Shown: positions 8,978 to 32,000 of the stretch, one piece after another
Layout of the letters: each line of letters begins with the position of its first letter
Numbering within the stretch: the stretch's first letter is position 1
From: an uncultured archaeon
Lineage (GTDB): Archaea; Asgardarchaeota; Thorarchaeia; Thorarchaeales; Thorarchaeaceae
Assembly: GCA_964354495.1 (NCBI GenBank)
Contig: CAYHAA010000001.1
Coordinates: 615,010 to 647,009, forward strand
Length of the DNA: 32,000 nucleotides
Direction: 5' to 3'
Notes under the pieces: model-generated
The model's input: the letters and a program-made list of their open reading frames with translations, nothing else
What the model was told of the DNA's origin: nothing
The model's database searches: none
Made by a program: the position numbers and the translations under genes

Positions 8978-10060
8978 TTGACAGAAGTCGCTGAAACGAA
9001 TCCAGAGAGTACTGAGTTCTTGCGTGCTAAACTTCGTGAACTCAAAATACAATCTAGAGATGAACTTGACGCACTCCGCCATGACAGGGATCAAATGCGT
9101 GAGTATAAGCAAATTCGTGATGATCATAACAAAGAGGTAAAATCACTCATCGAGTCTGTGAAAGCGGAACGTGAGGAACGGGACCGGATCAACCAAGAGA
9201 TTACAGAGGCCAAGGAGAGAAGACAGGCAATTCACGCTCAACTCGCCAGCATTTATGATGAGATTCGTGAACTCCGCAGTAATCTTGTCGGTAGCCCTTC
9301 AACAGATCAACGCCGTATGATGCGTCAAGTCGAAGAGCTTGAGTGGAAACAGCAAACTGAGCAGCTCTCAAAAGATGAGGAGTATTCCATTGTTGAGGAA
9401 ATTGCTCGAATTGAGGCTCAGCTCGTCAAGATTGGCCAGGAAAAAGAGAAGCAAGATCGAATCAGCGAAGCACGCAGGTTAGCCAGAAAACTAAAGGAAG
9501 AGGCTTCCGAAGTGCATGAGAAGGTGCTGTCACTTTCAGAGCAGTCTCAGATTCATCATCAGGAAGTTGTAAGGATACGACCACAACTTGAGGAGTACAA
9601 GAAATCTGCAGACAAAGCTCACAAGAACTTTGTTGAGTGGCTAAAGAAGGTCAAAGAGGGCGAGGCACGGCTCAAGGAACAGAGAACTCAAATCGAGGAT
9701 ATCCAAACGAAGCTGCGCAAACAGACTGTAGAGAAGCGCGACGAGGAGCGTGATGAGCAACGTCAACATCAGAAGGCTCAAGAACGTGAGCGCGTCGAGT
9801 CCGCAGTTGAGAAGCTTCAATCAGGCAAGAGGCTTACATTCGATGAGTTCATTCTCGCTCAACGGACGGTAACTGATGATAAGAAGCGGTCCAAGAAGAA
9901 AGCACATGATGCTGAGAAGGCAGATGAAGTCGCTGCATCAACGACGGAATCCAAGGCTACCCCTGACTTTGAACCCGATGACGAACTCGAGTCAATACTC
10001 GAAGAGTCTGAGTCTAAGCCTGATACAGAACCTTCGCCTGACAATGAAACCGATCAGTAG
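8978..10060 (+). CDS. Archaeal long coiled-coil protein (COG1340-like) with acidic disordered tail
   Basis: Charged heptad-rich sequence with VEELEWKQQTEQLSKDEEYSIVEEIARIE and the KLQSGKRLTFDEF terminus typical of this family. GAGGT RBS at 8964 before the TTG start. Confidence 0.75.
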   Translation: MTEVAETNPESTEFLRAKLRELKIQSRDELDALRHDRDQMREYKQIRDDHNKEVKSLIESVKAEREERDRINQEITEAKERRQAIHAQLASIYDEIRELRSNLVGSPSTDQRRMMRQVEELEWKQQTEQLSKDEEYSIVEEIARIEAQLVKIGQEKEKQDRISEARRLARKLKEEASEVHEKVLSLSEQSQIHHQEVVRIRPQLEEYKKSADKAHKNFVEWLKKVKEGEARLKEQRTQIEDIQTKLRKQTVEKRDEERDEQRQHQKAQERERVESAVEKLQSGKRLTFDEFILAQRTVTDDKKRSKKKAHDAEKADEVAASTTESKATPDFEPDDELESILEESESKPDTEPSPDNETDQ

Positions 10061-19338: not shown

Positions 19339-20886
19339 CTAGGTCTCGATTGAAGCCAACAGGGATTCATCCGTCGTGAGCGGTTTCGATTTTGCCTGAA
19401 TATGTGTGGTAGCCAAAATGCTCTCCGTGTAGGACGATACCATTCTGACTACAACTGTGGGGTCCAGAGCCCCGAACTCCAACGAATGCTTAAACTCTCC
19501 ATTACTCTCCATCACCGCGTCATCGAATGCCGCAGCGAAGTCTGCAAGGTCCACTTGATTCTGGAACATTGCAGAGATCGTATAATGCGCCCTGCTCCCG
19601 CTAATTGTTCCCACGACTGTGAAGTCCAATAGCTCTGCTCCTGTCTTTCTGCAAGCCATAGTCACTCCTTGAGTGACATGTGCATCAGTCAGTTTCTCGC
19701 CAGCTAGATTGACCACCCTGCCCTTTCTTCCGATTCTATGAACAGAATACGGTTCGGTGTCAATGAATGTGACCAGATCGCCAATTCGATATCGTGTATA
19801 TCCCATCAGGTTCGTTAGCACAATCTCATATCTTCGTCCCTTTTTCACCTCAGAGAGAGGAATCACATTGGGTTCATCATTTTCAATTTCTGACTCTGGA
19901 ATGAACTCAAAGTAGTTGATGTGGGGTAATAACTGAATGCCATTATTGGTATGAGGAAGTAATGTTGTACCATAGATTCCCTCTGACCCAGCATAGTTGT
20001 CCCATAGAACCGCCTGCGGCAGCGTCTTTGAGAGCCAGGATTTGTAGGGGTCTGCATCAATGCCTGTAGCTCCAATCAGGATGAGATGTGGCCACAGGGT
20101 TTGAAGATCCAGAGTGCCATCATCTCTCAAGGACTCCCGTATTCTTCTTTCGTGTTTGGTACCCTTGAAGTGGTTGAGGAGAGAAGGACCAAACTCATTC
20201 TGCATCTTTCTGATGAACGAGATTGCCAGAGTTGTTATACCTGCCAAGCCAGTGACATTCTCACGCACCGCATACTTTGCATACGCCCAGAGTTTTTCGG
20301 TGATGTCGGTCATATTGAATATCTCTTCTCCAGGCTTGATCAGCTTCCTCATCAGTGCATTCGCTATCAACTCCCGTGAGATTCCGGTCATATACCCGAG
20401 AGGAACGCCGTTGATATCTCCAAGATGTGCAGGTGCAGCGAATGTCAGCATCGTACCTTCGAAGACTCTCTTGTGCTCCTTTCCCGCATTGATGAATGAC
20501 ATCATGAAGAGCATGCTGGCCCTCGAGTAGTCTGCCAATCCAGACTTGCTGATTGGCAGAGCTTTGGGCTTTCCACTCGTACCACTTGATTGGACGTACC
20601 ATATCACGGGATCAGCTGTCACAATAGGAAGATTCGGGGTTTCATGGATGCGTTCAAAATAGGGTTGCATGGAATAATAGTCATAGAGAGGCACCCTTTC
20701 GCTGAATTGCTCAGGTGTCTTTATTGATTCATACCCATGGTCCTTGCCAAATGCAGTATTCCTATGCGCTTCAAGAATTGACTTGAGCTTGCTTTCAGTC
20801 AAACCTACAGGATTGTTCAGGATGTTCTCAATCTCCTTTGTCTTCCTCTTCGCGAGGATTGGAACAATCTTACTCATAATTGACAT
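19339..20886 (-). CDS. GH3 family acyl-adenylate/amido synthetase ('auxin-responsive GH3' family)
   Basis: HRNTAFGKDHG, FSERVPLYDY, QSSGTSGKPK, YAGSEG, YFEFIPE, YEIVLTNLMGYTRYRIGD and GEKLT. Confidence 0.92.
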   Translation of the reverse strand: MSIMSKIVPILAKRKTKEIENILNNPVGLTESKLKSILEAHRNTAFGKDHGYESIKTPEQFSERVPLYDYYSMQPYFERIHETPNLPIVTADPVIWYVQSSGTSGKPKALPISKSGLADYSRASMLFMMSFINAGKEHKRVFEGTMLTFAAPAHLGDINGVPLGYMTGISRELIANALMRKLIKPGEEIFNMTDITEKLWAYAKYAVRENVTGLAGITTLAISFIRKMQNEFGPSLLNHFKGTKHERRIRESLRDDGTLDLQTLWPHLILIGATGIDADPYKSWLSKTLPQAVLWDNYAGSEGIYGTTLLPHTNNGIQLLPHINYFEFIPESEIENDEPNVIPLSEVKKGRRYEIVLTNLMGYTRYRIGDLVTFIDTEPYSVHRIGRKGRVVNLAGEKLTDAHVTQGVTMACRKTGAELLDFTVVGTISGSRAHYTISAMFQNQVDLADFAAAFDDAVMESNGEFKHSLEFGALDPTVVVRMVSSYTESILATTHIQAKSKPLTTDESLLASIET

Positions 20887-21480
20887 CTCTCATCTTGCCT
20901 CCAACAGCTAAGACTAAGTAGCCTTGCCTGTTGGAACGTGCATCTCAATTCTGATTATTGTCTGCTCCGTTGTTCATAGAAGTCCTCTATGCTATCTCTC
21001 CAAGACTCTACAGCAGGTTCCATAGATTCTTGCCAGCAAATTCGCGCTATTGTGGCTCTTTTCCTTCTGGACTAGGCTATTGCCAGACTTCTACTATCAG
21101 TGTTAGTACCAAACTGCAAGAGTCAGAGGGTTTTCTCTCGTTCTTCTTGGGTTCGAGCCGGCATGTGGCTTCCATCGCCTTTTCTTCACCAACGCGTCGA
21201 TTCAAACTTGACCTCATACAACAGGAACTGCTTCTTCTTCCAACAAGAGATTGAATGTGCCATTAATGATCTGTTGGACTTGCAGAACTGTACTCTTCCA
21301 CTACCCAGAAGTCTAACACGAGCTTTGTTCAGGGTCAATGGAGCTCTATGAAATGCGATTAAGCAGCCTATGACCATCATAGTCGCTATAGGCAAACTCC
21401 AACTTCTCATATCGAGCTTCTACTCCTCTGGGCAGATTGAACTATCTTTGAGTGACAGTTGTTCTCGTACGGTGCATGAG

Positions 21481-22233
21481 ATGATTACGCAACTGGACGA
21501 ACAACTGGCCGCAGCAGTGAAAGGTGTGAAAGCACACACCACTGTGGATGTCACCCTCGTCCTTCAGGTCATGTTCAACAGCAGCGATCGCAGTATCATC
21601 ACTGCTAAGCTTCGGTACAATGGGCATGACAGGGACACCAACTTGGTGATGGTTGTTGGACTGAGGAGCGATATTCTCTCACCATTCCAGAAGATTAGTT
21701 TGGATCAGAGGGGCCGCTATCGACCCTGTGATATCCCTGGATTAGTGCCAGGACTCGCGCAGCTCGCACTATCAGCAAACAATGGTGTGATGCTTAGCGC
21801 AATTTCGCGCGAAGAGGTAACCCGATTCATCTTGGTCTTTGAAGGTTTAGCTGAGCGAAAGGGTGGATGCTTGAAGGCACTTGCATCGGTTCTCACTGCT
21901 TTCATGAAGCGGTGGACTGATTGGACCGATGTATTGCTAGGTACTCTGAAGCGAGATCCGATTGTAGGCGATTGGGACGTCGACTGGAGGGAGATGTTGG
22001 CTGGTGAAAGCGGGTATGCGACAATGGCTTGGTTCACACCCTTGACATATTCCGACCGTGAAACCGGGCTCCAGAGAATCGTTGCTGCATCTCAAGCTCT
22101 GCTCGTATCGGTACTCAGCGCGAATCAACTGAAGGACCCGATGATATTTGGCCTGAAGGATTGGCTCACATCACTGAAACCCCTTCCGCAGGTCGCAAGT
22201 AGCATGCAAGTTGGTGAGGAGGTAGAAATCTAG
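21481..22233 (+). CDS. Hypothetical protein, first gene of the recombination-associated operon
   Basis: Long ORF with natural composition; start placed at ATG 21481 (GGTG at 21471-21474), while the ORF track gives 21370. The stop is 1 nt before the next gene. Confidence 0.7.
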   Translation: MITQLDEQLAAAVKGVKAHTTVDVTLVLQVMFNSSDRSIITAKLRYNGHDRDTNLVMVVGLRSDILSPFQKISLDQRGRYRPCDIPGLVPGLAQLALSANNGVMLSAISREEVTRFILVFEGLAERKGGCLKALASVLTAFMKRWTDWTDVLLGTLKRDPIVGDWDVDWREMLAGESGYATMAWFTPLTYSDRETGLQRIVAASQALLVSVLSANQLKDPMIFGLKDWLTSLKPLPQVASSMQVGEEVEI

Positions 22234-22234
22234 T

Positions 22235-22702
22235 TTGATGGTTGATGATGTAATTTACAGTATTCCCCGTGAAACATACAGCCTGCCCCAAGCGTCTTGG
22301 TTGGCAGGTGCAGCAGCAGGTCTTCAGATCATGGGCCCGAGGACCCCTGAGTGGCTGTGGAATGATTTCATCCGTGATATCTATGATATGATACGAATGA
22401 TTGGTGATGTCGTACCTGCAGAGCCAGGTACTGCCCCTACTTATGGCGATGGCCATGTGGGAAGTGCATTCGACGCTCTTGGGGGCTATATCAGCATTGT
22501 AGGTGAAATATGTCCCGAAGGGCTCTATTTTCGTGTGCCCTTAGTTCGCCAGGAGGACGTAGCTCGTTTGCTGAATGGCCTGACACTCTTCAGATCACAA
22601 GGCGAAATCGTCATTCCTCTATACGATCTTCCAGCCTTCTCGCGTCTTGTTCCTCTGGAAGGACCGGTTGCTGAGCAGCTTGAAGATGAGGTGACTCCAT
22701 GA
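22235..22702 (+). CDS. Hypothetical protein (possible degenerate LAGLIDADG-like fold)
   Basis: GAGGAGGT RBS at 22216-22223; ATGA overlap with radA. Segment GSAFDALGGYISI weakly resembles a LAGLIDADG helix. Confidence 0.65.
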   Translation: MMVDDVIYSIPRETYSLPQASWLAGAAAGLQIMGPRTPEWLWNDFIRDIYDMIRMIGDVVPAEPGTAPTYGDGHVGSAFDALGGYISIVGEICPEGLYFRVPLVRQEDVARLLNGLTLFRSQGEIVIPLYDLPAFSRLVPLEGPVAEQLEDEVTP

Positions 22703-23790
22703 CCGAACTCGAAGCTGTGCCTGGCGTAGGCCCTGCAGTGGCCAAGAAGCTTCGGGAGGCTTATGTTACCACGGCTGAGCTTCTTGCAGTGCAGAATCCT
22801 GTGGAACTTCTGAAGCGTACAAAGTTAGGAGAAGGCACAACTGACAAAATAATCAAGAATGCTCGTCAGCTCATTGGCAAGTTCGGCTTTCGGTCCGGGC
22901 TTGAAATCGAGCAGGAAATGGCAACCAAACCTCGACTGAAGACTGGAGTCGGGAAGATTGACGAATGCCTTCTTGGCGGCATCGAAGTCGGGTCCATCGT
23001 TGAGATATTTGGGCCTGCCCGAGGTGGAAAGACCCAGTGGGTTTCGCAGCTTGCAGTGATGGCCCAACTTCCGTATAAGCAGGGTGGGCTTGAAGGCAGG
23101 GTTCTCTGGCTTGATACTGAATCAAGTTTCAAACCTTGGATAATTAGAGCGAATGCGGTCAGGCATGGTCTGGATCCAGATATCGCACTCGGCAACATCG
23201 GGCGCGCTGAGATTGTGCTTTCTGGCCAGATTGCTGAAATTTTTGAGAGCATCCCTCAGCTCTGCGCCGAACAGAACTACAAGCTTGTTGTGATTGACAG
23301 TTTCACTGGTCTCTTTCGTGCCGAGTACACAGGGCTCGAGTCTATGCGTGTCCGACAACAGGACATGAATTCTCTCCTTAACCACATGCGACGTACAGCT
23401 GCTGCAACAGAAGCCATCTTTGCATATACGAACCAAGTCATGGCAAAGATCTCAAACTACGGAGGCAATCCCAATGCGCCTGTCGGTGGACACATCATTT
23501 CGCATGCGAGTGATTACAGATTCTACACGCGCAGGACCAAAGCTGATATTCGCAAGATTGAACTACAGGACAACGCCGGCCTGCCAGAGTTCGATGTTGA
23601 TGTGTACGTAGGTTGGGGTGGATTCTATTCTGACTCCAAGGCAAAGAAGGAGCATGAGCCTGATGTCTTAGAGTACTTCGAGAAGCGAGGTATCAACGTT
23701 CAGGAGGAGGCAGGTGCACTGGGCTCTGATTCAGAAGAAGAGGAGCTCGTGGCAGTGGCTGAGTCAGCCCAGGCAGGCGACGATACGTGA
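22699..23790 (+). CDS. radA: RadA/Rad51-family recombinase paralogue with N-terminal HhH domain and acidic tail
   Basis: LEAVPGVGP (HhH), LKTGVGKIDECLLGGIEVG, Walker A GPARGGKT, LDTESSF, Walker B LVVIDSF, RQQ, TNQV and GGHIISH. GAGGTGA RBS at 22688. Confidence 0.92.
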   Translation: MTELEAVPGVGPAVAKKLREAYVTTAELLAVQNPVELLKRTKLGEGTTDKIIKNARQLIGKFGFRSGLEIEQEMATKPRLKTGVGKIDECLLGGIEVGSIVEIFGPARGGKTQWVSQLAVMAQLPYKQGGLEGRVLWLDTESSFKPWIIRANAVRHGLDPDIALGNIGRAEIVLSGQIAEIFESIPQLCAEQNYKLVVIDSFTGLFRAEYTGLESMRVRQQDMNSLLNHMRRTAAATEAIFAYTNQVMAKISNYGGNPNAPVGGHIISHASDYRFYTRRTKADIRKIELQDNAGLPEFDVDVYVGWGGFYSDSKAKKEHEPDVLEYFEKRGINVQEEAGALGSDSEEEELVAVAESAQAGDDT

Positions 23791-24245
23791 GCAGAGACCG
23801 GGGCATGTTCCGAGTCTACCATTGTGCGAAATGCAACAACATTGGTTACAGCCAAGTAGAGAGTGAAGAGGATCTCACCAGATGCGGTCTATGTCACGCT
23901 CCCATTCTACATGAAACTGGAACTGTCTACGCAGTGACGAAGCACGAAGCCCAGACGTTAGTACGAGAACTTGCTCTTGAATCACATACTTCAAGGGCTG
24001 CTTCAAAGCGAAGCCCTCCACGTGGACTAGGCGTGAAGAGGAGAGTATACAATATTATTGAGGCATTGGTGGACATCAAACGAGGCAAACCCACCTCACT
24101 TGAGGAAGTGATGAGGGAATGCAGCGAGGCTGGGATAGAGCTTCGCCGTGCAATGAAGTTCTTGGAAACTCTGGAGTCGGAGGGCTTGATTGTCAATGAT
24201 GGTGCGAATATTACTATAACACGCGAGGTATGGCCCGATGGCTAG
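23787..24245 (+). CDS. Zinc-ribbon (CxxC...CxxC) plus C-terminal winged-helix protein (DUF1922/DUF5817-like architecture)
   Basis: HCAKC...RCGLC, then RVYNIIEAL...SLEEVMRECSEAGI...KFLETLESEGLI, resembling MCM-type C-terminal WH. GTGA overlap with radA. Confidence 0.7.
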   Translation: MSRDRGMFRVYHCAKCNNIGYSQVESEEDLTRCGLCHAPILHETGTVYAVTKHEAQTLVRELALESHTSRAASKRSPPRGLGVKRRVYNIIEALVDIKRGKPTSLEEVMRECSEAGIELRRAMKFLETLESEGLIVNDGANITITREVWPDG

Positions 24246-24858
24246 CTCTGATAGCCTTTCAGATTCCTTGTTGCCTAATAAGGCAGCGGCCTGCATTCCG
24301 CAGTGGTCGATGATTAGCCTAGTCAATCTCATGCTTAGAAAAACGCCGCATAGAGTATCTGTCTTAGAGCGATGTGATGGCCCCGACCCTCAGTTATTTG
24401 TCGTGACGCGCGTTGAGTGGAGAGACCCTGACGTCAAGAAACCATTTCTTTCACAGCTACCTAGGATACTCTCTCTTCTCGAGACTCTTCGTGGTTCCAA
24501 GGGTGTCCCTCGAGAGGTCTATCTTGACAGCACAGAAGGTGTCGTGGTCTACCTGCCCAGTGGCTTGAAGGTTTCCGAGTTGCCTCATGAACCCAAGAAT
24601 GCAGTTCATCTTCTGATGTCCATTGTAGAAACCTCTCTCGAACATCTGTATTCAACTATGGGAGACGTTGAATCTTGGTTCTGGAAGGCTGCTCGCCAGA
24701 AGGGATTCAGTCCCGAGATTGTTGAGAAGATGGGGAAGAAGGAGGCGCACTACGACTCTAATGATTTGATGTGGCGGTTTCAACGACTCCTCCAGAAGTA
24801 CTTCTCGTTGAGGTTCACTATTCAACGGAGCGAGTCATGCTTAAGATTGGAGGATTAA
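24238..24858 (+). CDS. Hypothetical protein
   Basis: 206-aa ORF overlapping the upstream gene by 8 nt and ending 2 nt before the XPD start. Confidence 0.7.
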   Translation: MASSDSLSDSLLPNKAAACIPQWSMISLVNLMLRKTPHRVSVLERCDGPDPQLFVVTRVEWRDPDVKKPFLSQLPRILSLLETLRGSKGVPREVYLDSTEGVVVYLPSGLKVSELPHEPKNAVHLLMSIVETSLEHLYSTMGDVESWFWKAARQKGFSPEIVEKMGKKEAHYDSNDLMWRFQRLLQKYFSLRFTIQRSESCLRLED

Positions 24859-24860
24859 GA

Positions 24861-26813
24861 GTGAGCAGCGCGACAATCGACCCTATGATCTATTTCCCCT
24901 ATTCTCCGAGGCAATATCAGGAGAGAGCAGTAAGCCTAGCTGCAAAGGCTTTCTCCTCGGATACGGTCGGGCTTCTTCACGCAGACTGTGGGATTGGCAA
25001 GACAATCGCAGTGCTCTCCGGATATCTTGCTTGTCGAGCTATGGATTCAGCTGCTCATCTTTTTGCTCTGACGCGTACTCATTCCCAATCTAAGGTCTTT
25101 GAGACAGAGCTTGAGGTGCTCAGAAGCGCAGTGCCTCATCTGGCTGCTACCACCATGGTATCTCGAGTTCATGTCTGTCCAATTCGTCATCAGATGGAAT
25201 CGCTCAGTCATACAGGTTTCATGCGAGCGTGCGTAAATATGATTAAGACTGAGCAGTGCATCTACTACTGGAATTTCTACAAGCGAAGCAATACTGATGG
25301 CAAAGTAGTCATCGATGAGGATGGGCGCAGGGCAATAGGGGACCTGCTTGATACTGGAGTTGTCACGAGAGAGAGGGCTGAAGAACGAGCGGCGCAGGAT
25401 GGCTATTGTCCCTACGAGATTATGCGATGGTGCGCTCGTGGAAGCATGGTCGTCATCGGACCCTATTCCTACATGTTCAAGTCACGAGTCCGAGAGGCTC
25501 TCCTCTCATCCTTAGGTCTCTCTCTCAATGAAGTGGACCTGCTCATCGATGAGGCCCACAATCTGTCAGGGCACGTTCTTGATGCTGAGACATCAATTCT
25601 AAGTAACGATGATCTGCGATGGTTGAGGGAGAATAGCCAGCTAGTGGTTCGAGAAACAGGCGTATCGTGGATTCGCGAGGCGATTGACTTTCTTTGGGAG
25701 AGCATGATGCTTCACCTGGACACTATGCAGAAACAGACGGAGTGTCCTCTTGACAAGTGGGATGTTGCGCCTAGGTTCATCAAGGATGAGGACCTCGACA
25801 TCCTTCACCGTGTGGGCCGACCAGAGCTTGGCGACCCAGAAAATGCCAGTCTTGTTGAGACTCCTCTTGATAGACTCATTGAGTTCCTCTACACCGCTCA
25901 AAGAGCTGCACGAAGTGATGGATGGCACGTTACTCTGCACGTGGATCATTCATTCTCTGATGACTTGCCAAGATCAACATCTTCTCTCATGATTCAACCA
26001 CTCAACTCTGCAGGATTGACTGCTCCAATTCTCAGAGGAGCTAGATCTGCTGTACTGATGTCTGGGACTCTCCGGCCGCTGGACTATTACGAGCGTCTGT
26101 TGGGCGTGCCAAACGCGATTTCGGATGACCTCACAAGCCCTTACCCCCGAGGCACACGACTTGTACTCATTGACAAGAGGCTGAACACGCGATACAAGGA
26201 ACGCAACCCGGAGTTATGGCGAGATGTTGCAGCAAGGATTTCCGCTGCTCTCTGTACCATGCCTGCGAACAAGAGTGCGCTCGTTGCGTTTCCCTCCTAC
26301 AAGATGATGAGCGAGGTAATGAGCTATAGTATAGATACCGGATTTCGGGAGGCATTAGTAGAAACGCGAGATGCCCTGTTGGAAACCGTTGCTCAAGCGA
26401 TTTCACACAGCCCTTGCGCTATGTTTTGCGTATATGGCGGCAAGTTCTCGGAAGGAATCGATCTTGTCAGTGCTGGTTCTAGTATGATTGACCTGATTAT
26501 TGGCGTAGGCATACCATTCAGTCCTCCGACAAGCTATCAGACAGCTCTTCAGAGCTGGTATGATAGCAAGTTCGGGCATGGCATGGGCTACTACTATGCA
26601 TCTGTCGTACCATCAATCAGACAGGTTGCACAGTTGGTTGGGAGACTGAGACGCTCTCCAAGTGATTCTGGTGTTGTCGTACTTCTTGATAATAGGTTTC
26701 TACAGCATCTGTCGGTCTTTGGGGATGAAATTGTATCGGACGTCTGGCCATACAATGACCCCATGGAAATGAAGGAGGCGATTACACAATTCAACCAGGT
26801 GAGGCTGGGATAG
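24861..26813 (+). CDS. XPD/Rad3/DinG-family ATP-dependent Fe-S DNA helicase
   Basis: FPYSPRQYQ (Q motif), ADCGIGKT, four Fe-S Cys (RVHVCP, RACV, QCIYY, YCPYE), IDEAHNL, MSGTL, FPSY, GGKFSEGID, GIPF and QLVGRLRR. Start placed at GTG 24861 after GGAGG. Confidence 0.93.
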   Translation: MSSATIDPMIYFPYSPRQYQERAVSLAAKAFSSDTVGLLHADCGIGKTIAVLSGYLACRAMDSAAHLFALTRTHSQSKVFETELEVLRSAVPHLAATTMVSRVHVCPIRHQMESLSHTGFMRACVNMIKTEQCIYYWNFYKRSNTDGKVVIDEDGRRAIGDLLDTGVVTRERAEERAAQDGYCPYEIMRWCARGSMVVIGPYSYMFKSRVREALLSSLGLSLNEVDLLIDEAHNLSGHVLDAETSILSNDDLRWLRENSQLVVRETGVSWIREAIDFLWESMMLHLDTMQKQTECPLDKWDVAPRFIKDEDLDILHRVGRPELGDPENASLVETPLDRLIEFLYTAQRAARSDGWHVTLHVDHSFSDDLPRSTSSLMIQPLNSAGLTAPILRGARSAVLMSGTLRPLDYYERLLGVPNAISDDLTSPYPRGTRLVLIDKRLNTRYKERNPELWRDVAARISAALCTMPANKSALVAFPSYKMMSEVMSYSIDTGFREALVETRDALLETVAQAISHSPCAMFCVYGGKFSEGIDLVSAGSSMIDLIIGVGIPFSPPTSYQTALQSWYDSKFGHGMGYYYASVVPSIRQVAQLVGRLRRSPSDSGVVVLLDNRFLQHLSVFGDEIVSDVWPYNDPMEMKEAITQFNQVRLG

Positions 26814-26815
26814 AT

Positions 26816-27421
26816 ATGATGCAACTCCACGCTTTTCACGAATTGAAACTGATTGGCCTGACCATCCTGGCAGTTATCTTTGTGCTCAAGGTCTACCTTG
26901 CTCCTGGAGACTCTGTAGGGATTATTATGACTGGTGCTGGTCTGGCCGCATATGTTGCAGCCTTAGTTATCCATCTGTCATCGTCATCCATACCACGGGT
27001 CCTCTGGGATGCCAAGCTCGGCGCTGTGGCTATCATTCGCTCTTGGACAGTCGAGGTCGCCTCAGCAAAGATTCTCTCAAGTGTGCCTATTGGCATTGAC
27101 TTGAGTCATTCTGGTCGAAAGGTACTGCAGTCTATGTACACTCGATTCCTAGACAAGCCCGGGGGAACATTAGTCTTCTTCATCACTAGACCGATGGGCA
27201 ACCAATCAACAAGAGTGGGCTACCTAGTTCGGAGAAGGAGATTGAGGCTTTGGAACAGCTTAGGTCCGGTTAACAACCTTGGGAAGATGATCACTGCTGA
27301 CTGTATGATTCTGGAACGGTCGATGAGAGCTGCCTATCCTCATCTTCCCGTGGTCGATGCTAGCTTCGCCGACATCATAACAACCGCAGCTGGAGGTCTT
27401 GAAACTCATGTCGTCGTCTGA
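26816..27421 (+). CDS. Membrane protein with two N-terminal TM helices and a cytoplasmic alpha/beta domain
   Basis: LIGLTILAVIFVLKVYL and VGIIMTGAGLAAYVAALVIHL followed by a basic soluble region; 2-nt gap to XPD. Confidence 0.7.
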   Translation: MMQLHAFHELKLIGLTILAVIFVLKVYLAPGDSVGIIMTGAGLAAYVAALVIHLSSSSIPRVLWDAKLGAVAIIRSWTVEVASAKILSSVPIGIDLSHSGRKVLQSMYTRFLDKPGGTLVFFITRPMGNQSTRVGYLVRRRRLRLWNSLGPVNNLGKMITADCMILERSMRAAYPHLPVVDASFADIITTAAGGLETHVVV

Positions 27422-27707
27422 ACAACGCTCTGGCATCGAAATCCCTGAAGGTGTAAGTCCAGAGGCAATCATGAGCTTTTTGGAAGTTGGTCACAACTAT
27501 CGTTGGACCGTGCTTACGCGTCTGCCTCTCTTGGTCGCTCACGGTGCACCTGCACTGGGCACTGGTAATATGCCTGAAATCCTCTTGGCTGGCAATAGAT
27601 CTATGATTATTGCAGGTGGTGACACCGCATACGTCGAGAGAATACGCCACGTACTCGAGATGTTGAAGCGTCAATCACAGCGAATGATTTTTACAAAGGA
27701 GGGTTGA
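27408..27707 (+). CDS. Small hypothetical protein
   Basis: GGAGGT at 27392-27397 precedes ATG 27408; overlaps the upstream gene by 14 nt. Confidence 0.65.
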   Translation: MSSSEQRSGIEIPEGVSPEAIMSFLEVGHNYRWTVLTRLPLLVAHGAPALGTGNMPEILLAGNRSMIIAGGDTAYVERIRHVLEMLKRQSQRMIFTKEG

Positions 27708-27711
27708 GAGA

Positions 27712-30072
27712 ATGCCTAAACGCTTGATACTTGGGACTAGACCTGAATCCGATCCTCTGAAAGAGTTCTCCGATTCTGACTACTCCGTTTCCTCTTCTAC
27801 TGAGATCCGATGGGATGAGAGGACACAGAGTCGTCCTCTTGCTCTACCAGCGTTCATCTCGCTCATCTGTGTTGCCCTTGGGTTGTATGACCCCCTCATC
27901 CCGTTCACTGTCGGAATCGCCGTTGTTGCGTTGGTCCTGTTGATCCCTTTCATCCGAACGAACTGGGACAAGATGGTCTTGCGAGAAGACTCTTGGATTG
28001 AGGTACAGCAATCAGACACGCTTTGCTCTATCGTTGATGACATTGTGGGCCTGAACTGCAGGACACCTACAGGTACACATCATCTAATGGGAATGCAGCT
28101 GGGTGCTGCAAACTCCATTCTTCTAGGTGACGTCGGCTCGTTCGTGCGAGCGGTTGATGGCCCATTCGGTTTTTGCCTAACTGTGACGATGCAGCCCGAG
28201 AAAGTCCAACGTGCCCTGGACGAGGAACGCATTGCGGATCCGGTTGAAGATTATCTCAACGCGATTCCTAAAGGAGAGGTTGAAGCTTATGTTCTTCGGC
28301 GAGGGGGCCTGTGGATTTCTCAGGTGACAGCTGTGGGCCATTTCAGGAACGCTGCTGATGGCGATATCTTCGAGTGTGCCCTAAAGGCATCGATTCCAAT
28401 GGATAAATGGAAGCGTATCCCGTCTAGGACTCTGCAAAAAGGAACTGAGCAGCTTGCTGCTAACGACCAATCTAAGTGGTTCTATGCAGTTGGCTCAGAG
28501 CTCTCTGAATGGTTAGTGCAGCTGCGATCAGAGCTGGCTTCCGAGGTTGGACGAAGTATCCCCGGTCAGTTTCTCGCCCCAATCAGAGGGAGATCCGATG
28601 ACTATCGCTTGGGCGTGACTATCAATCCAGATACCTTACGGACAGGACCACCAGTAGGCCTCTCTCACCTTGAACTGGAGAATGGCCTGTTGATATGCGG
28701 AGGCGCTGCTGAATCAAGAATGAGAATCATTGCTCTACTGACATCTGAGCTCTTGCATGCTGGCAAGCGCATTATCATCTTTACAAATAACAGAGCATCT
28801 ATTGGTTATGCTCGGCTCTTGGAAGGAACAGTGCATCTTGAGCTCGGAAGAGACTTTGTGCTCAATCCAGTCGACTCTGAAGGTGTTCCAAGAAGCGACT
28901 ATGTACCGCTTCTGATCTCTTCCCTTGAAGTGGTGGCAGCCACAGATCTGAGGGGTGCCGCGGAGCTTGAGCTGGCAATATCGTGTGCTGTCACTCTTGG
29001 AAATGCAACACTGGCTGACGTTCAACTCAGCAATGGCTCTGAAGAGGCTATTTCATCTTCTCCTGAAACCTCGAAACCACTTGAATCAATGCCTTCGAAC
29101 AAGTCGAAGACAGGAATGGAGGCAGTTCGCTCACTGCATCAAGGCTCTGCCGCTAAAGCATTCTATGGCACTCAGACAGCTCCAACTTCTAGGCTCACAG
29201 AATCTGCATTGACTGTTGTAAGGGTTCTTCTGGGGTCTGCTTCTCTCGAACACTTTGCATGGAATGTGATTTCAATAAAGCTGGCCGGTCTGGGTCCAGA
29301 TCCCAATCTAGTGGTGATTCTTGATGGACCAGAGAACATGCGGGTGAGAAATCGCACCTTCATGAAGCATGACTCGCTTAGTGAGCGTCTTGTTGAAAAC
29401 ATGAAGAAGAGAGGTCCAGTCGTAGTAGCACTGGAGCATCCCGCAGACATGGCTGTGGGAGCTATCGGTGCTTTGGCTTCATGTGTGTCACTGAGGCTGC
29501 GTGAGGCAGCAGACATCATGGTGGCTTCCGATATATTGGGCCTGAATGTGATTACAACTCCCTTGCATACTAAAGCGCGTATTTCTCCGAGAGAATCCTC
29601 ATATCTTCGAGTAATGGATGATGACACTGCACTCCTCGTGCATGATGGGACTGAAAGCTGTCAACCTATCAGACTCGATCCAGCTCCCGAATTGACTCCG
29701 GAGAGTGCCACAGAGGAGGAGTCCCAACGGATTGGCACACTGCTATCATCAGAGGACACGAGCAGTGCACCAAATCAAGGGTCTCTGCTTGACAGAGTTT
29801 CTGCGGGCTGTACTATTCTTGCCATCAGAGTCCTGAAGTTGCTTGAGAGATACGAACCGTTGACTCAGGAGGCTGTACGTCGATTCATAGTGGCTAGTGG
29901 TTCGGAGAATGATCCTGACGTAGAGGCTGTCCTTGCGAGGCTTGAGCATGCTAGCATGATTCTACGCGGTCATGAGGTCCATAGCGGAGTATCGTATACA
30001 AACTACAGAATCACAATGAAAGGAAGCATGGCCCTTCGTCAGACTGAGGGTACGGAGGGTGCAATTGCATGA
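27712..30072 (+). CDS. Membrane-anchored HerA/VirB4/FtsK-like protein with degenerate ATPase motifs and C-terminal winged helix
   Basis: Two N-terminal TMs. GLLICGGAAESRM occupies the Walker A position, FVLNPVD follows, VVILDGPE occupies the Walker B position and MKKRGPVVVALEHPAD matches the GRKYG...TQRPSD position. C-terminal wHTH: RVLKLLERYEPLT...LARLEHASMI...YRITMKG. Confidence 0.6.
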   Translation: MPKRLILGTRPESDPLKEFSDSDYSVSSSTEIRWDERTQSRPLALPAFISLICVALGLYDPLIPFTVGIAVVALVLLIPFIRTNWDKMVLREDSWIEVQQSDTLCSIVDDIVGLNCRTPTGTHHLMGMQLGAANSILLGDVGSFVRAVDGPFGFCLTVTMQPEKVQRALDEERIADPVEDYLNAIPKGEVEAYVLRRGGLWISQVTAVGHFRNAADGDIFECALKASIPMDKWKRIPSRTLQKGTEQLAANDQSKWFYAVGSELSEWLVQLRSELASEVGRSIPGQFLAPIRGRSDDYRLGVTINPDTLRTGPPVGLSHLELENGLLICGGAAESRMRIIALLTSELLHAGKRIIIFTNNRASIGYARLLEGTVHLELGRDFVLNPVDSEGVPRSDYVPLLISSLEVVAATDLRGAAELELAISCAVTLGNATLADVQLSNGSEEAISSSPETSKPLESMPSNKSKTGMEAVRSLHQGSAAKAFYGTQTAPTSRLTESALTVVRVLLGSASLEHFAWNVISIKLAGLGPDPNLVVILDGPENMRVRNRTFMKHDSLSERLVENMKKRGPVVVALEHPADMAVGAIGALASCVSLRLREAADIMVASDILGLNVITTPLHTKARISPRESSYLRVMDDDTALLVHDGTESCQPIRLDPAPELTPESATEEESQRIGTLLSSEDTSSAPNQGSLLDRVSAGCTILAIRVLKLLERYEPLTQEAVRRFIVASGSENDPDVEAVLARLEHASMILRGHEVHSGVSYTNYRITMKGSMALRQTEGTEGAIA

Positions 30073-32000
30073 CCGTAGTTTCGGATGTGACATCACTGGT
30101 CACAAAGCTACTCAGTCAGGCTGGGATGAAACCCCGGGGTGTTCAAACCGAGGCAATCAACAGAGGTCTCTTGGAGGGAGAGAGCATCATGGTTTCCTCT
30201 CCGACAGGCTCTGGCAAGACATTCTGCGGCGAGATTGCGCTTCTGAGAGCAGTTGCCTCCGGAAAGAAAGGGCTGTTTCTCGTACCACTACGAGCTCTTG
30301 CAGTTCAGGTATTCAGAACGGTGAAAGAAAGATACGAGCACTTGGGCGTCTCAATTGGGCTGAGCACTGGTGATTTTCAAAACAATGGAGATGGACTTGC
30401 TGAGAATGATATTATCATCACGACGTACGAACGTGCAGATTCACTCTTACGAAGCAAAAGTAGTTGTCTCTCTGAGGTCGGCACGATTGTCATCGACGAA
30501 ATTCAAACGCTCTCTGAGGTCGGCCGTGGAGCTCGCCTAGAGAGCTTTATTATTCGGGCAAAGCGAACCATCCAAGACCTTCAGATTGTGGCATTATCCG
30601 CAACAACAGGAGCTCCCGAGGAACTTGCAGAGTGGCTGGGATGTCATCTTGTGATCTCAGACGAACGACCTGTTCCTCTTGTGTATCGAATAGTTACAGC
30701 GAGTGACAAGATTCTCACGATCAAGCATCTAGTGATGACCACAGTTCAAGGGAATGGGCAGGCAATCATCTTTCACCGGACTCGTCGGGAAGCTGAAGCA
30801 GAAGCTAGACGACTCGCTGATGATGTGGGGCGCCAGTTCACTTCTGATGAGAAGACGCGCCTTGATCACGAGCTGAACTCTGTTGAGAATTGGCATGTGC
30901 CCCTCTCTTCAGATCTTAGAGTCCTTCTACACAATGGTATTGCATTTCATCATGCAGGTCTTGGCTTCAATGGTCGTCGAATTGTAGAGCGATTGTTCGA
31001 TAAAGGAATGGTCCGCGTCATATGTGCAACGACAACATTGGCAGCCGGAATGGACCTGCCAGCTAGAACCGTGATACTCTCCAACTTCAGGTCTCCTGCT
31101 GACCACAGAAAATTCCTGTCAGCAAACACAGTCCACCAGATGTTGGGGAGGGCGGGTCGTCCTACTCGTGACAAGATAGGATTCGGAATAATCATTGGAA
31201 ACAGCACAGGTGAGAGTGAGGAGGCAAAACGCCGGTACTTCGAAGTCACCGAAGATGCAACATCAGGAAAGGAAGTTCTATCACCCAAGTATGATCGTGT
31301 CAACAGTGCACTTGCCCACCCTGACACTCTTGCTGAGCAGCTTCTTGTTGCTCTCGACATGATGTCCTCGGCATCCATTGAAGACATCGAGAATGGCTTG
31401 CTTGGTGAATCCTTCTTGGTCTTCTGCGCAATTCGAGACTCAAAGGCTCCAATGAGGGTCTTTCAGCTAGGCGAAATCTCGGCGGCTTCAGTCTTGGAGC
31501 AGCATGCTCTCCCTGAGACCATTCAGACTGCGCGTAAGGATTTGCTCGGTAAGACATCACTTCGTGAGAAGAACGAAACCGTAATTGGCGGGATTGTTAC
31601 GACGCTTGATGGAGGGCAATTCACATGTCGTTTCTCGGTACGTCTTTCGTCATCGGGTGTTGTTGAAGGTCCCATGTGCTCGTGTGGCTCACCCTTGTCT
31701 GAGAGCGGCATTCTGTGCTATCATCTGGTGACTCTAGGAATGGCTGCTGCCAGGAACTTGGGCAATCTGGCTGACTACGTCATTCCTCTCTCACTCTCTG
31801 AATCGAGCCCTCTGGGTCTGTTGATACGCCTTGGACTCGTCGAGGGTGATATTAGTGGAAAGATTAGACCTACACGTCTTGGTCGTGCCGTGAGTAGACT
31901 CTATCTGCGCATTCCCACGGTTCGAGAGACCCTTGCAATGCTCCCCTCGACTGAGGACGTTAAGTCGCTCTTATGGCTCTTGAGGCACGCTGTTTCAATT
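30069..32000 (+). CDS. 3'-truncated Hel308/Hjm/Ski2-like SF2 helicase with an inserted SWIM zinc finger
   Basis: Absent from the ORF track because it has no stop in the window; translated by hand from ATG 30069 (ATGA overlap). Motifs: VQTEAI, SPTGSGKT, VPLRALA, TTYE, IDEIQ, LSAT, FHHAGL, ATTTLAAGMDLPA, QMLGRAGRP, CSC-x10-CYH at 31677-31724 and PTRLGRAVSRLYL. Confidence 0.92.
   Translation, partial: MTVVSDVTSLVTKLLSQAGMKPRGVQTEAINRGLLEGESIMVSSPTGSGKTFCGEIALLRAVASGKKGLFLVPLRALAVQVFRTVKERYEHLGVSIGLSTGDFQNNGDGLAENDIIITTYERADSLLRSKSSCLSEVGTIVIDEIQTLSEVGRGARLESFIIRAKRTIQDLQIVALSATTGAPEELAEWLGCHLVISDERPVPLVYRIVTASDKILTIKHLVMTTVQGNGQAIIFHRTRREAEAEARRLADDVGRQFTSDEKTRLDHELNSVENWHVPLSSDLRVLLHNGIAFHHAGLGFNGRRIVERLFDKGMVRVICATTTLAAGMDLPARTVILSNFRSPADHRKFLSANTVHQMLGRAGRPTRDKIGFGIIIGNSTGESEEAKRRYFEVTEDATSGKEVLSPKYDRVNSALAHPDTLAEQLLVALDMMSSASIEDIENGLLGESFLVFCAIRDSKAPMRVFQLGEISAASVLEQHALPETIQTARKDLLGKTSLREKNETVIGGIVTTLDGGQFTCRFSVRLSSSGVVEGPMCSCGSPLSESGILCYHLVTLGMAAARNLGNLADYVIPLSLSESSPLGLLIRLGLVEGDISGKIRPTRLGRAVSRLYLRIPTVRETLAMLPSTEDVKSLLWLLRHAVSI

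Follow-up and report, generated by a model that had tools for sequence, protein, structure and literature searches.

This report concerns an operon of 15 co-directional genes, g1 to g15, of an uncultured archaeon of the Thorarchaeaceae, which brings divergent recombination enzymes together with a membrane-anchored protein of the VirB4/HerA fold. It was found in the window, by which we mean the whole stretch of 32,000 nucleotides (nt) analysed, G000:C1:615010-647009, inside a 679-kb contig. (In our labels G and three digits denote the genomes compared, G000 being the source genome, a Thorarchaeota metagenome-assembled genome; L denotes extracted loci, and C contigs, those of G000 where no other genome is named.) The operon occupies window-equivalent positions 21481-37290 on the + strand and so extends 5.3 kb past the window end. 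The original prediction described a ten-gene operon, and those ten genes are real, but they make up only two thirds of a unit whose true size is 15 genes and whose end is at 37290. The nine junctions then listed were reproduced exactly from the open reading frames (ORFs): +1, -4, -4, -8, +2, +2, -14, +4 and -4 nt, the last an ATGA overlap. The five that follow, from g10 to g15, are +5, -38, -11, -38 and -4 nt, for a range across all 15 genes of -38 to +5 nt. Ribosome-binding sites had been proposed upstream of most starts, and GGAGG-like sequences are indeed seen there. Judged from the junctions, the 15 genes are a translationally coupled unit, and hydropathy predicts transmembrane (TM) segments in four of them, g7, g9, g11 and g13.

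The protein at the center of the interpretation is g9 (27712..30072, +; 786 amino acids, aa). In order, it has a TM hairpin at aa 40-85, a VirB4-like N-domain, an FtsK-HerA-type ATPase fold and a C-terminal winged helix, the Baldrarchaeia orthologue matching Pfam HTH_24. A Foldseek comparison of the AF2 model (pLDDT 76) with the PDB gave 140 matches at E <=1e-3, including TrwK/VirB4 at 2e-13, HerA at 3e-10 and TrwB at 2e-8. The TrwK/VirB4 match, to the type IV secretion system (T4SS) of R388, is full length, covering ~700 columns, and the matches also include the HerA-type defence hubs Sir2-HerA and DUF4297-HerA. In AFDB the matching clusters are named HerA, TraG or conjugation. A g9 profile run against PDB sequences returned HerA rows at an insignificant E of 0.1-0.4 only. 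On the strength of the model, g9 has the RecA-like ATPase core of the FtsK-HerA superfamily, and its earlier description as HerA/VirB4-like, but with no GK[ST] P-loop, agrees with the fold matches. The P-loop position reads C-G-G-x4-R, with G330, G331 and R336 invariant among 23 sequences; the Walker A motif is GGxxxER, without GK[ST], in 23 + 7 aligned sequences from Thorarchaeota, Baldrarchaeia, Freyarchaeia and other lineages, so that the Walker A lysine is replaced by arginine and the S/T is lost in every g9 lineage aligned. The Walker B position is D-G-P-E in g9, and DD or DE in homologues outside Thorarchaeota. From these motifs it is reasonable to regard g9 as a pseudo-ATPase. Does the odd loop still bind something? 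Its strict conservation suggests that binding of some kind is probably retained. A complex prediction of g9 (aa 250-786) with g10 (aa 395-730) scored 0.00, which gives no verdict and is not used as evidence.

Around g9 are arrayed what look like private copies of recombination enzymes. The assignments of g3, g6 and g10 as RadA-like, XPD-like and Hel308-like with a SWIM finger were borne out by Pfam and by the SWIM ligands, and the question whether the host has separate canonical radA, xpd and Hel308-like genes can be answered: it does, elsewhere, and has fen1 as well. The g3 gene (22699..23790, +) encodes a full-length divergent RadA paralogue with an HhH N-domain and an acidic tail (Pfam Rad51 3.4e-52, HHH_5 2.6e-7), in which Walker A (GPARGGKT) and Walker B (LVVIDS) are both intact. 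It gets better scores from RadA models than from those for RAD51 or DMC1, reaching 257 bits on NF003301, just under the cut-off of 259, and 231 on TIGR02236 against a cut-off of 361. By these scores g3 is a member of the RadA/Rad51 family, yet not an equivalog of the housekeeping archaeal RadA. The canonical RadA, at C1:559983, scores 304 bits with Pfam versus 179 for g3, and is 38% identical to it. The cluster RadAs of two Thorarchaeota families group together, as a clade apart (97/99), in a maximum-likelihood tree. They are on a long branch outside the canonical Thorarchaeota RadA clade (99/98) and evolve several-fold faster than the canonical copies; since the clade spans two families, the duplication would be older than both. 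Two further members of the recombinase family lie beyond the window, also on the + strand: g12 (237 aa), with a RadA/KaiC-type P-loop (GDAGSGKT), and g14 (245 aa), a Rad51 core without Walker A.

The helicases and the nuclease show the same pattern of relatedness to, and divergence from, housekeeping enzymes. An XPD/Rad3-family helicase paralogue is encoded by g6 (24861..26813, +), with Pfam DEAD_2, Helicase_C_2 and HBB, intact GIGKT and DEAH motifs, and four cysteines that align with the iron-sulphur-cluster cysteines of the host's other XPD; its TIGR00604 score of 152 bits is under the cut-off of 247. The more canonical XPD is on C3 and is 26% identical to g6. That gene, at G000:C3:142833-146149, is itself ~1 kb from a short RadB-like Rad51-family gene, a second pairing of XPD with a RadA paralogue. 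The 730-aa product of g10 (30069..32261, +, a window-equivalent end, as the window stops at 32000) has a Ski2/Hel308 core (Pfam DEAD and Helicase_C, GSGKT, DEIQ) and matches Hel308 domain 4 weakly only. Its scores of 349 bits on NF002654 and 264 bits on NF040935 are far under the cut-offs of 887 and 1200, so that by sequence g10 is not a Hel308/Hjm equivalog, though the core matches. Inserted at aa 537-552 is a SWIM zinc finger, CxC-x10-CxH, whose ligands C537, C539, C550 and H552 are invariant in all 11 of the 11 module-linked orthologues. Other Hel308-like genes of the host, on C6 and C5, are 33-36% identical to g10. An 878-aa Hel308/Ski2-like ORF in the region G000:C5:162806-163807 carries a CxC-x6-CxH motif near its C-terminus, which indicates that SWIM-like fingers are not confined to the operon helicase. 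The last operon gene, g15 (beyond the window, +), encodes a 334-aa FEN1/XPG-like protein (XPG_I 2.6e-17) in which every acidic active-site position aligns with canonical FEN1, and which ends in a PIP-like QSTLEQWL; the canonical FEN1, on C20, is 26% identical to it. To judge from the alignments, g6, g10, g3, g12 and g15 all keep their catalytic motifs.

The remaining products are small or membrane-embedded. As predicted earlier, g7 (26816..27421, +; 201 aa), like g9, has an N-terminal TM hairpin by hydropathy, followed in g7 by a conserved arginine-rich soluble domain of 145 aa. The description of g4 (23787..24245, +; 152 aa) as a Zn-ribbon with a winged helix also holds, there being two CxxC pairs and a weak match to helix-turn-helix family HTH_45 (Pfam, E 0.038), consistent with a probable winged helix. 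Soluble proteins of no assigned family are encoded by g1 (21481..22233, +; 250 aa, alternative start at 21370), g2 (22235..22702, +; 155 aa) and g8 (27408..27707, +; 99 aa), and g5 (24238..24858, +; 206 aa) is likewise without an assigned family. Beyond the window, on the same strand, are g11 (562 aa, with a central TM hairpin) and g13 (322 aa, ~4 TM segments). None of g1, g2, g5, g8, g11 and g13 has a match in Pfam, NCBIfam, PADLOC or PHROGs, and profile searches with g8 and g13 found nothing outside Thorarchaeota. A weak language-model lead links g5 to small kinase-like folds, with Atlas features of 0.87-0.91 and few shared features.

It had been proposed that the genes form one dedicated unit, and conservation of gene order in relatives upholds this. 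The order is kept in 7/7 relatives checked, representing three genera plus a second family. From g2 to g15 it is the same in G001, G004, G005, G013, G339 and G346, where g9 is 38-58% identical; in G025, from the other family of the order, where g9 is 25% identical, the series is RadA, Zn-ribbon-winged helix, g5, XPD, two small genes, g9, Hel308 and a g11-like gene. Retention of order down to 25% g9 identity is far beyond chance. Even the unassigned genes take part: g1 orthologues are at the same position in G013 and G339, g2 has syntenic orthologues in G004, G005, G013 and G339, g8 has them in relatives, and g5 is conserved as far as G025. Across the family, g9 was detected in 53/85 genomes and 15/16 genera, and strong g10 matches in ~57/85 genomes. 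The divergent upstream neighbour (19339..20886, -) encodes a GH3-family adenylating enzyme, acyl-acid amido synthetase-like (Pfam GH3, GH3_M, GH3_C), a homologue of which adjoins the cluster in G005, G013, G339 and G025, and the further flanks are metabolic genes. There is no tRNA at the locus, and in the 16 cluster proteins g1-g16 and the nearer flanking ORFs, scanned with Pfam and PHROG, no integrase, recombinase, relaxase, VirD4, replication-initiator, capsid or phage domain was found. The syntenic flanks, together with the lack of a tRNA and of recombinase or relaxase domains, mark the locus as chromosomal; by this evidence it is vertically inherited, and neither a mobile element nor a defence island.

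How old is the association? Shorter g9-like proteins of 480-535 aa, without the N-terminal 250 aa, occur in Baldrarchaeia, Freyarchaeia and Odin/Promethearchaeota genomes, and a 1,275-aa form occurs in Hermodarchaeota. A Hel308-like gene is nearby in 7/8 g9-like loci from outside the family, and these module helicases align full-length with g10, not with their host's other Hel308-like genes. All the full-length ones carry the SWIM motif (6/7; the copy in L024 ends at the locus edge). A profile of the SWIM-bearing C-terminal half of g10 matched 214/400 Asgard genomes, and where g9-like and SWIM-Hel308 matches outside the family share a contig, 21/23 are within 11 kb, in eight families. On this evidence of sequence and linkage, the g9-like protein and the SWIM-Hel308 are an older pair, an Asgard-wide core. 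Other components accompany it less regularly. With profiles of the Thorarchaeota proteins, a g12-like RadA/KaiC P-loop gene was found in three loci outside the family and a FEN1-like gene in one; a g7-like TM gene immediately precedes the g9-like one in Baldrarchaeia L031 and in L026 (weak, E 1e-4), and in L026 a g4-like gene (profile, E 3e-7) is beside a RadA-like P-loop gene. The ~250-aa TM protein encoded before the short g9-like gene is probably the counterpart of the segment fused into the Thorarchaeota g9.

Two observations from these distant loci may be added. In L026 a PLD-family (PLDc_2) nuclease-like gene, at L026:7876-8811 (-), is directly downstream of the g9-like gene, at the position of the Thorarchaeota Hel308-like gene. 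The complete genome of Ca. Freyarchaeum deiterrae, G149, has three RadA genes, at C1:1520678, C1:2323558 and C1:2531225: two canonical ones, near-equal and 59-60% identical to the Thorarchaeota RadA, and a third, divergent and full-length, inside the g9-like module.

Genes for large surface proteins are found repeatedly within the module or next to it. In G000 a 209-aa 4-TM gene at window-equivalent 40201-40830 is followed by the gene for a surface protein of ~2,608 aa, running to 48838. The N-terminus of this protein is signal-like, there is a TM anchor at its C-terminus, and its domains are alpha-alpha toroid, MG2, Filamin and Big. Between the operon and this pair, which starts 2.9 kb further on, are a 681-aa gene in convergent orientation and a HEAT-repeat gene; in G005 the pair is directly after the FEN1-like gene, on the same strand. 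The giants with signal and anchor are 2,300-2,600 aa long in G000 and G005. Wherever a family genome has both genes on one contig (30 or more genomes), the 4-TM gene has the same orientation as g9 and lies 7.5-10.7 kb downstream of it. After the g11-like gene of G025 come a gene for a 196-aa polytopic protein and then one for a protein of >1,630 aa, truncated at the edge of the locus, which has toroid, MG4, Big and Filamin domains. The G000, G005 and G025 giants are homologous and collinear, and no thioester motif (CxEQ) was found in them. Beyond the order, the first gene of the Baldrarchaeia operon encodes a 1,081-aa protein that has an alpha-alpha toroid (Prenyltrans) domain, and M28-peptidase-like proteins of 888 aa in Freyarchaeia and 1,016 aa in L026, both with N-terminal hydrophobic segments, are encoded inside the module, each adjoining a small polytopic protein. 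The small polytopic proteins of the different Asgard classes have no mutual sequence homology. Within the family, inherited synteny could explain the link with surface proteins; their presence in or beside the module in four separate lineages raises the likelihood of a functional envelope link, which the gene neighbourhoods make on balance probable.

What might such an assembly do? The reading that we tentatively favor, though we would put it a little short of probable, is that the operon encodes an envelope-anchored machine for DNA processing and recombination, in which DNA exchange or uptake is coupled to recombination. DNA that crosses or contacts the envelope is favored by the recurring large surface proteins and small polytopic membrane proteins. 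In such a machine g9 would form a membrane ring that does not hydrolyse nucleotide, or binds it atypically, and would serve as a hub that holds DNA via its winged helix. XPD-family helicases move 5'-3' and Hel308-family helicases 3'-5', so that g6 and g10, from families of opposite polarity, could unwind DNA that is held at or arriving at the envelope. The FEN1-like g15 would trim 5' strands or flaps, and g3, loaded with the aid of g12 and g14, would pair the single strand so produced with the chromosome; the PIP-like tail of g15 may provide a link to PCNA-dependent synthesis. A more specific version may also be imagined, an Asgard module for contact-dependent exchange of chromosomal DNA, or "mating and recombination". 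The giant would make the contact, the dead VirB4/HerA hub and its small membrane partners would receive the DNA, and the private helicases, flap nuclease, RadA and RAD51-paralogue-like mediators would recombine it, the whole being ancient and independent of the Ced and Ted DNA-import systems. We regard this version as unlikely on present evidence.

Several findings weigh against an exchange or uptake machine. The earlier proposal of a membrane-tethered DNA machine stands insofar as there is a conserved unit with membrane proteins, but its import or exchange component is met by no recognised channel (VirB6/CedA or ComEC) or pilin homologue in the module; extension past 32000 for a nuclease or pilin gave the FEN1-like g15 and no recognised VirB2-like pilin. 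As for a two-helix pilin of the VirB2/CedA1 type, g7 has the hairpin, but also a 145-aa soluble domain, and is without detectable homology; polytopic candidates for a VirB6/CedA-like channel are g13 and the downstream 209-aa 4-TM protein, both without Pfam or profile similarity. All of the operon's TM hairpins have minimal external loops and expose almost nothing outside the membrane. The sole translocase-like protein, g9, being without the P-loop lysine, probably cannot pump DNA. By its AF2 model (pLDDT 64) g11 has an orphan fold, with no PDB match at E <=1e-3 by Foldseek, only its own orthologue in AFDB, and no usable match in an Atlas feature search. In G000 the surface protein is parted from the operon by the convergent and HEAT-repeat genes, and the link may be one of inherited synteny. 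Finally, several family genomes that are >=90% complete have neither g9 nor g10, indicating that the system is widespread but dispensable.

Might the machine instead serve the cell's own DNA? A membrane-tethered complex for internal repair or replication restart, acting on broken or stalled chromosomal DNA, would need the membrane proteins only for localisation or regulation, for example at a chromosome-membrane attachment site, and the surface protein would be an unrelated syntenic neighbour. All of the enzymes are motif-intact paralogues of housekeeping repair genes, the PIP-like nuclease tail points to PCNA-coupled synthesis, the TM hairpins resemble anchors more than pores, the layout of g9 (TM segments, motor fold, winged helix) is FtsK-like, and the locus is syntenic and chromosomal. 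Left unexplained by internal repair are five or more membrane proteins and the recurrence of surface proteins inside the module in unrelated Asgard classes; nor would one expect from it that evolution is several times faster in the cluster proteins than in the canonical copies, or that the cluster is missing from some near-complete genomes. We consider this joint reading, repair enzymes and bystander surface protein together, to be somewhat unlikely.

Fast evolution and patchy presence would suit a third reading, an envelope defence against viruses or plasmids, in which the dead VirB4/HerA-like hub senses or captures incoming DNA that the helicases and nuclease then destroy. HerA-family hubs and Hel308-like helicases of the HamB type are known from defence systems, g10 matches HamB models at 1e-40, Sir2-HerA and DUF4297-HerA are among the g9 fold matches, and a PLD-family nuclease joins the module in L026. 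The HamB and DinG matches are, however, generic: a PADLOC "type IV DinG" match of g6, considered as a CRISPR or defence link, was rejected because the DinG model gives the canonical XPD a higher score than g6. PADLOC found no HamA-like or other effector among g1-g16, the 4-TM protein and the giant. Synteny and flanks are conserved among 15 of 16 genera, with metabolic neighbours in place of a defence island, and the set of a full-length strand-exchange protein, two mediator-like paralogues and a flap nuclease linked to PCNA is suited to joining DNA, not to destroying it. Defence is accordingly judged improbable.

It is highly improbable that the operon is a mobile element that became integrated or domesticated (a module for conjugative or viral DNA transfer), or that it is a chance neighbourhood: VirB4 and TrwB are the best fold matches of g9, and Ced and Ted are themselves domesticated T4SS (PMC9905601), but the mobile-element reading was rejected on the conserved flank, with the same chromosomal neighbours across genera, and on the lack of a tRNA, while the domain scans described above found none of its hallmark genes, the operon GC content is only ~3 points above that of the flank, and chance is excluded by the coupling and by order kept at 25-40% identity.

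If DNA exchange or uptake coupled to recombination is the function, then the natural comparison is with Ced and Ted. In Ted loci, genes for HerA and Rad50 accompany that of a VirB4-like importer, which has been read as import-repair coupling (PMC9905601), and CedB and CedD split the VirB4-like N-domain between them (PMC11868833). The Asgard operon resembles both in combining small TM proteins with a VirB4/HerA-fold protein anchored in the membrane, and resembles Ted in having recombination genes in the locus; the CedB/CedD split parallels the split form of Baldrarchaeia as against the fused g9 of Thorarchaeota. The differences are substantial. CedB and TedB are taken to power transport, whereas g9 has no P-loop lysine in any lineage examined, a distinction that sets g9 apart from CedB by motif and description, not by direct sequence comparison. 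No CedA/VirB6-like or CedA1/VirB2-like protein was recognised in the Asgard operon, and the SWIM-Hel308, the XPD-like helicase, the full-length RadA, the two RadA-core paralogues, the FEN1-like nuclease and the giant surface protein are not matched by any partner in Ced or Ted. The Asgard operon is not a member of Ced/Ted; it may work like them, as an analogous system that is not homologous in its parts.

Other comparisons are instructive. Like the archaeal HerA-NurA-Mre11-Rad50 operon for end resection, the Asgard operon co-encodes an FtsK-HerA-fold ring protein with a 5'-processing nuclease and recombination factors, with the same predicted outcome, 3' single strands for RadA. However, HerA is a soluble, active ATPase and g9 is membrane-anchored and P-loop-degenerate, the Asgard nuclease is FEN1-like and not NurA, unwinding would fall to the XPD-like and Hel308-like helicases, and domain scans of the cluster proteins found no Mre11 or Rad50. 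Hachiman, Sir2-HerA and DUF4297-HerA share with the operon a Hel308-like helicase or a HerA-fold hub, but the cluster has no HamA, Sir2 or DUF4297 effector, its PADLOC matches reflect generic helicase similarity, and the locus is conserved and syntenic, not in a variable island. The operon is neither HerA-NurA nor Hachiman, nor is it a T4SS element. The original prediction had recognised the combination from no named repair, conjugation or defence system, and PADLOC, PHROG and the literature bear this out; our literature search for the gene combination found no paper describing it.

A comparison of another kind is offered by eukaryotes, where HELQ acts with RAD51 paralogues and the SWIM-domain proteins Shu2/SWS1. 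There too a Hel308-family helicase, RAD51-family paralogues (one, in the Asgard set, P-loop-less) and a SWIM finger come together. In the Asgard case it is the helicase that bears the SWIM finger, as an insertion, and all of the genes are operonic and membrane-linked; the likeness described is one of composition. This echo of eukaryotic mediators bears on the origin of the eukaryotic recombination toolkit.

To our knowledge, nothing has been established by experiment on the handling or exchange of DNA at the Asgard envelope, and the locus is a concrete, testable candidate for such a role. It defines a new VirB4/HerA-fold subfamily whose non-canonical P-loop is conserved, a subfamily of SWIM-bearing Hel308 helicases present in about half of the sampled Asgard genomes, and lineage-specific RadA, XPD and FEN1 paralogues outside the housekeeping pathways. 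A membrane-tethered recombination complex would be unusual even if its role were internal repair or defence. Should the mating-and-recombination version be true, the closest known relatives of eukaryotes would possess an exchange apparatus whose core of SWIM-Hel308 and RadA paralogues resembles the partnership of HELQ, RAD51 paralogues and SWIM proteins.

Two minor features of the surroundings may be recorded. The 681-aa gene at window-equivalent 37287-39332 (-), convergent to the operon end and without a family match, is at the same position in G001, G339 and G346 and is absent in G005. Within the window, and unrelated to the operon, a DUF7121 protein is encoded at 8978-10060 (+), beside a 419-aa protein with a C-terminal Lrp/AsnC ligand-binding domain.

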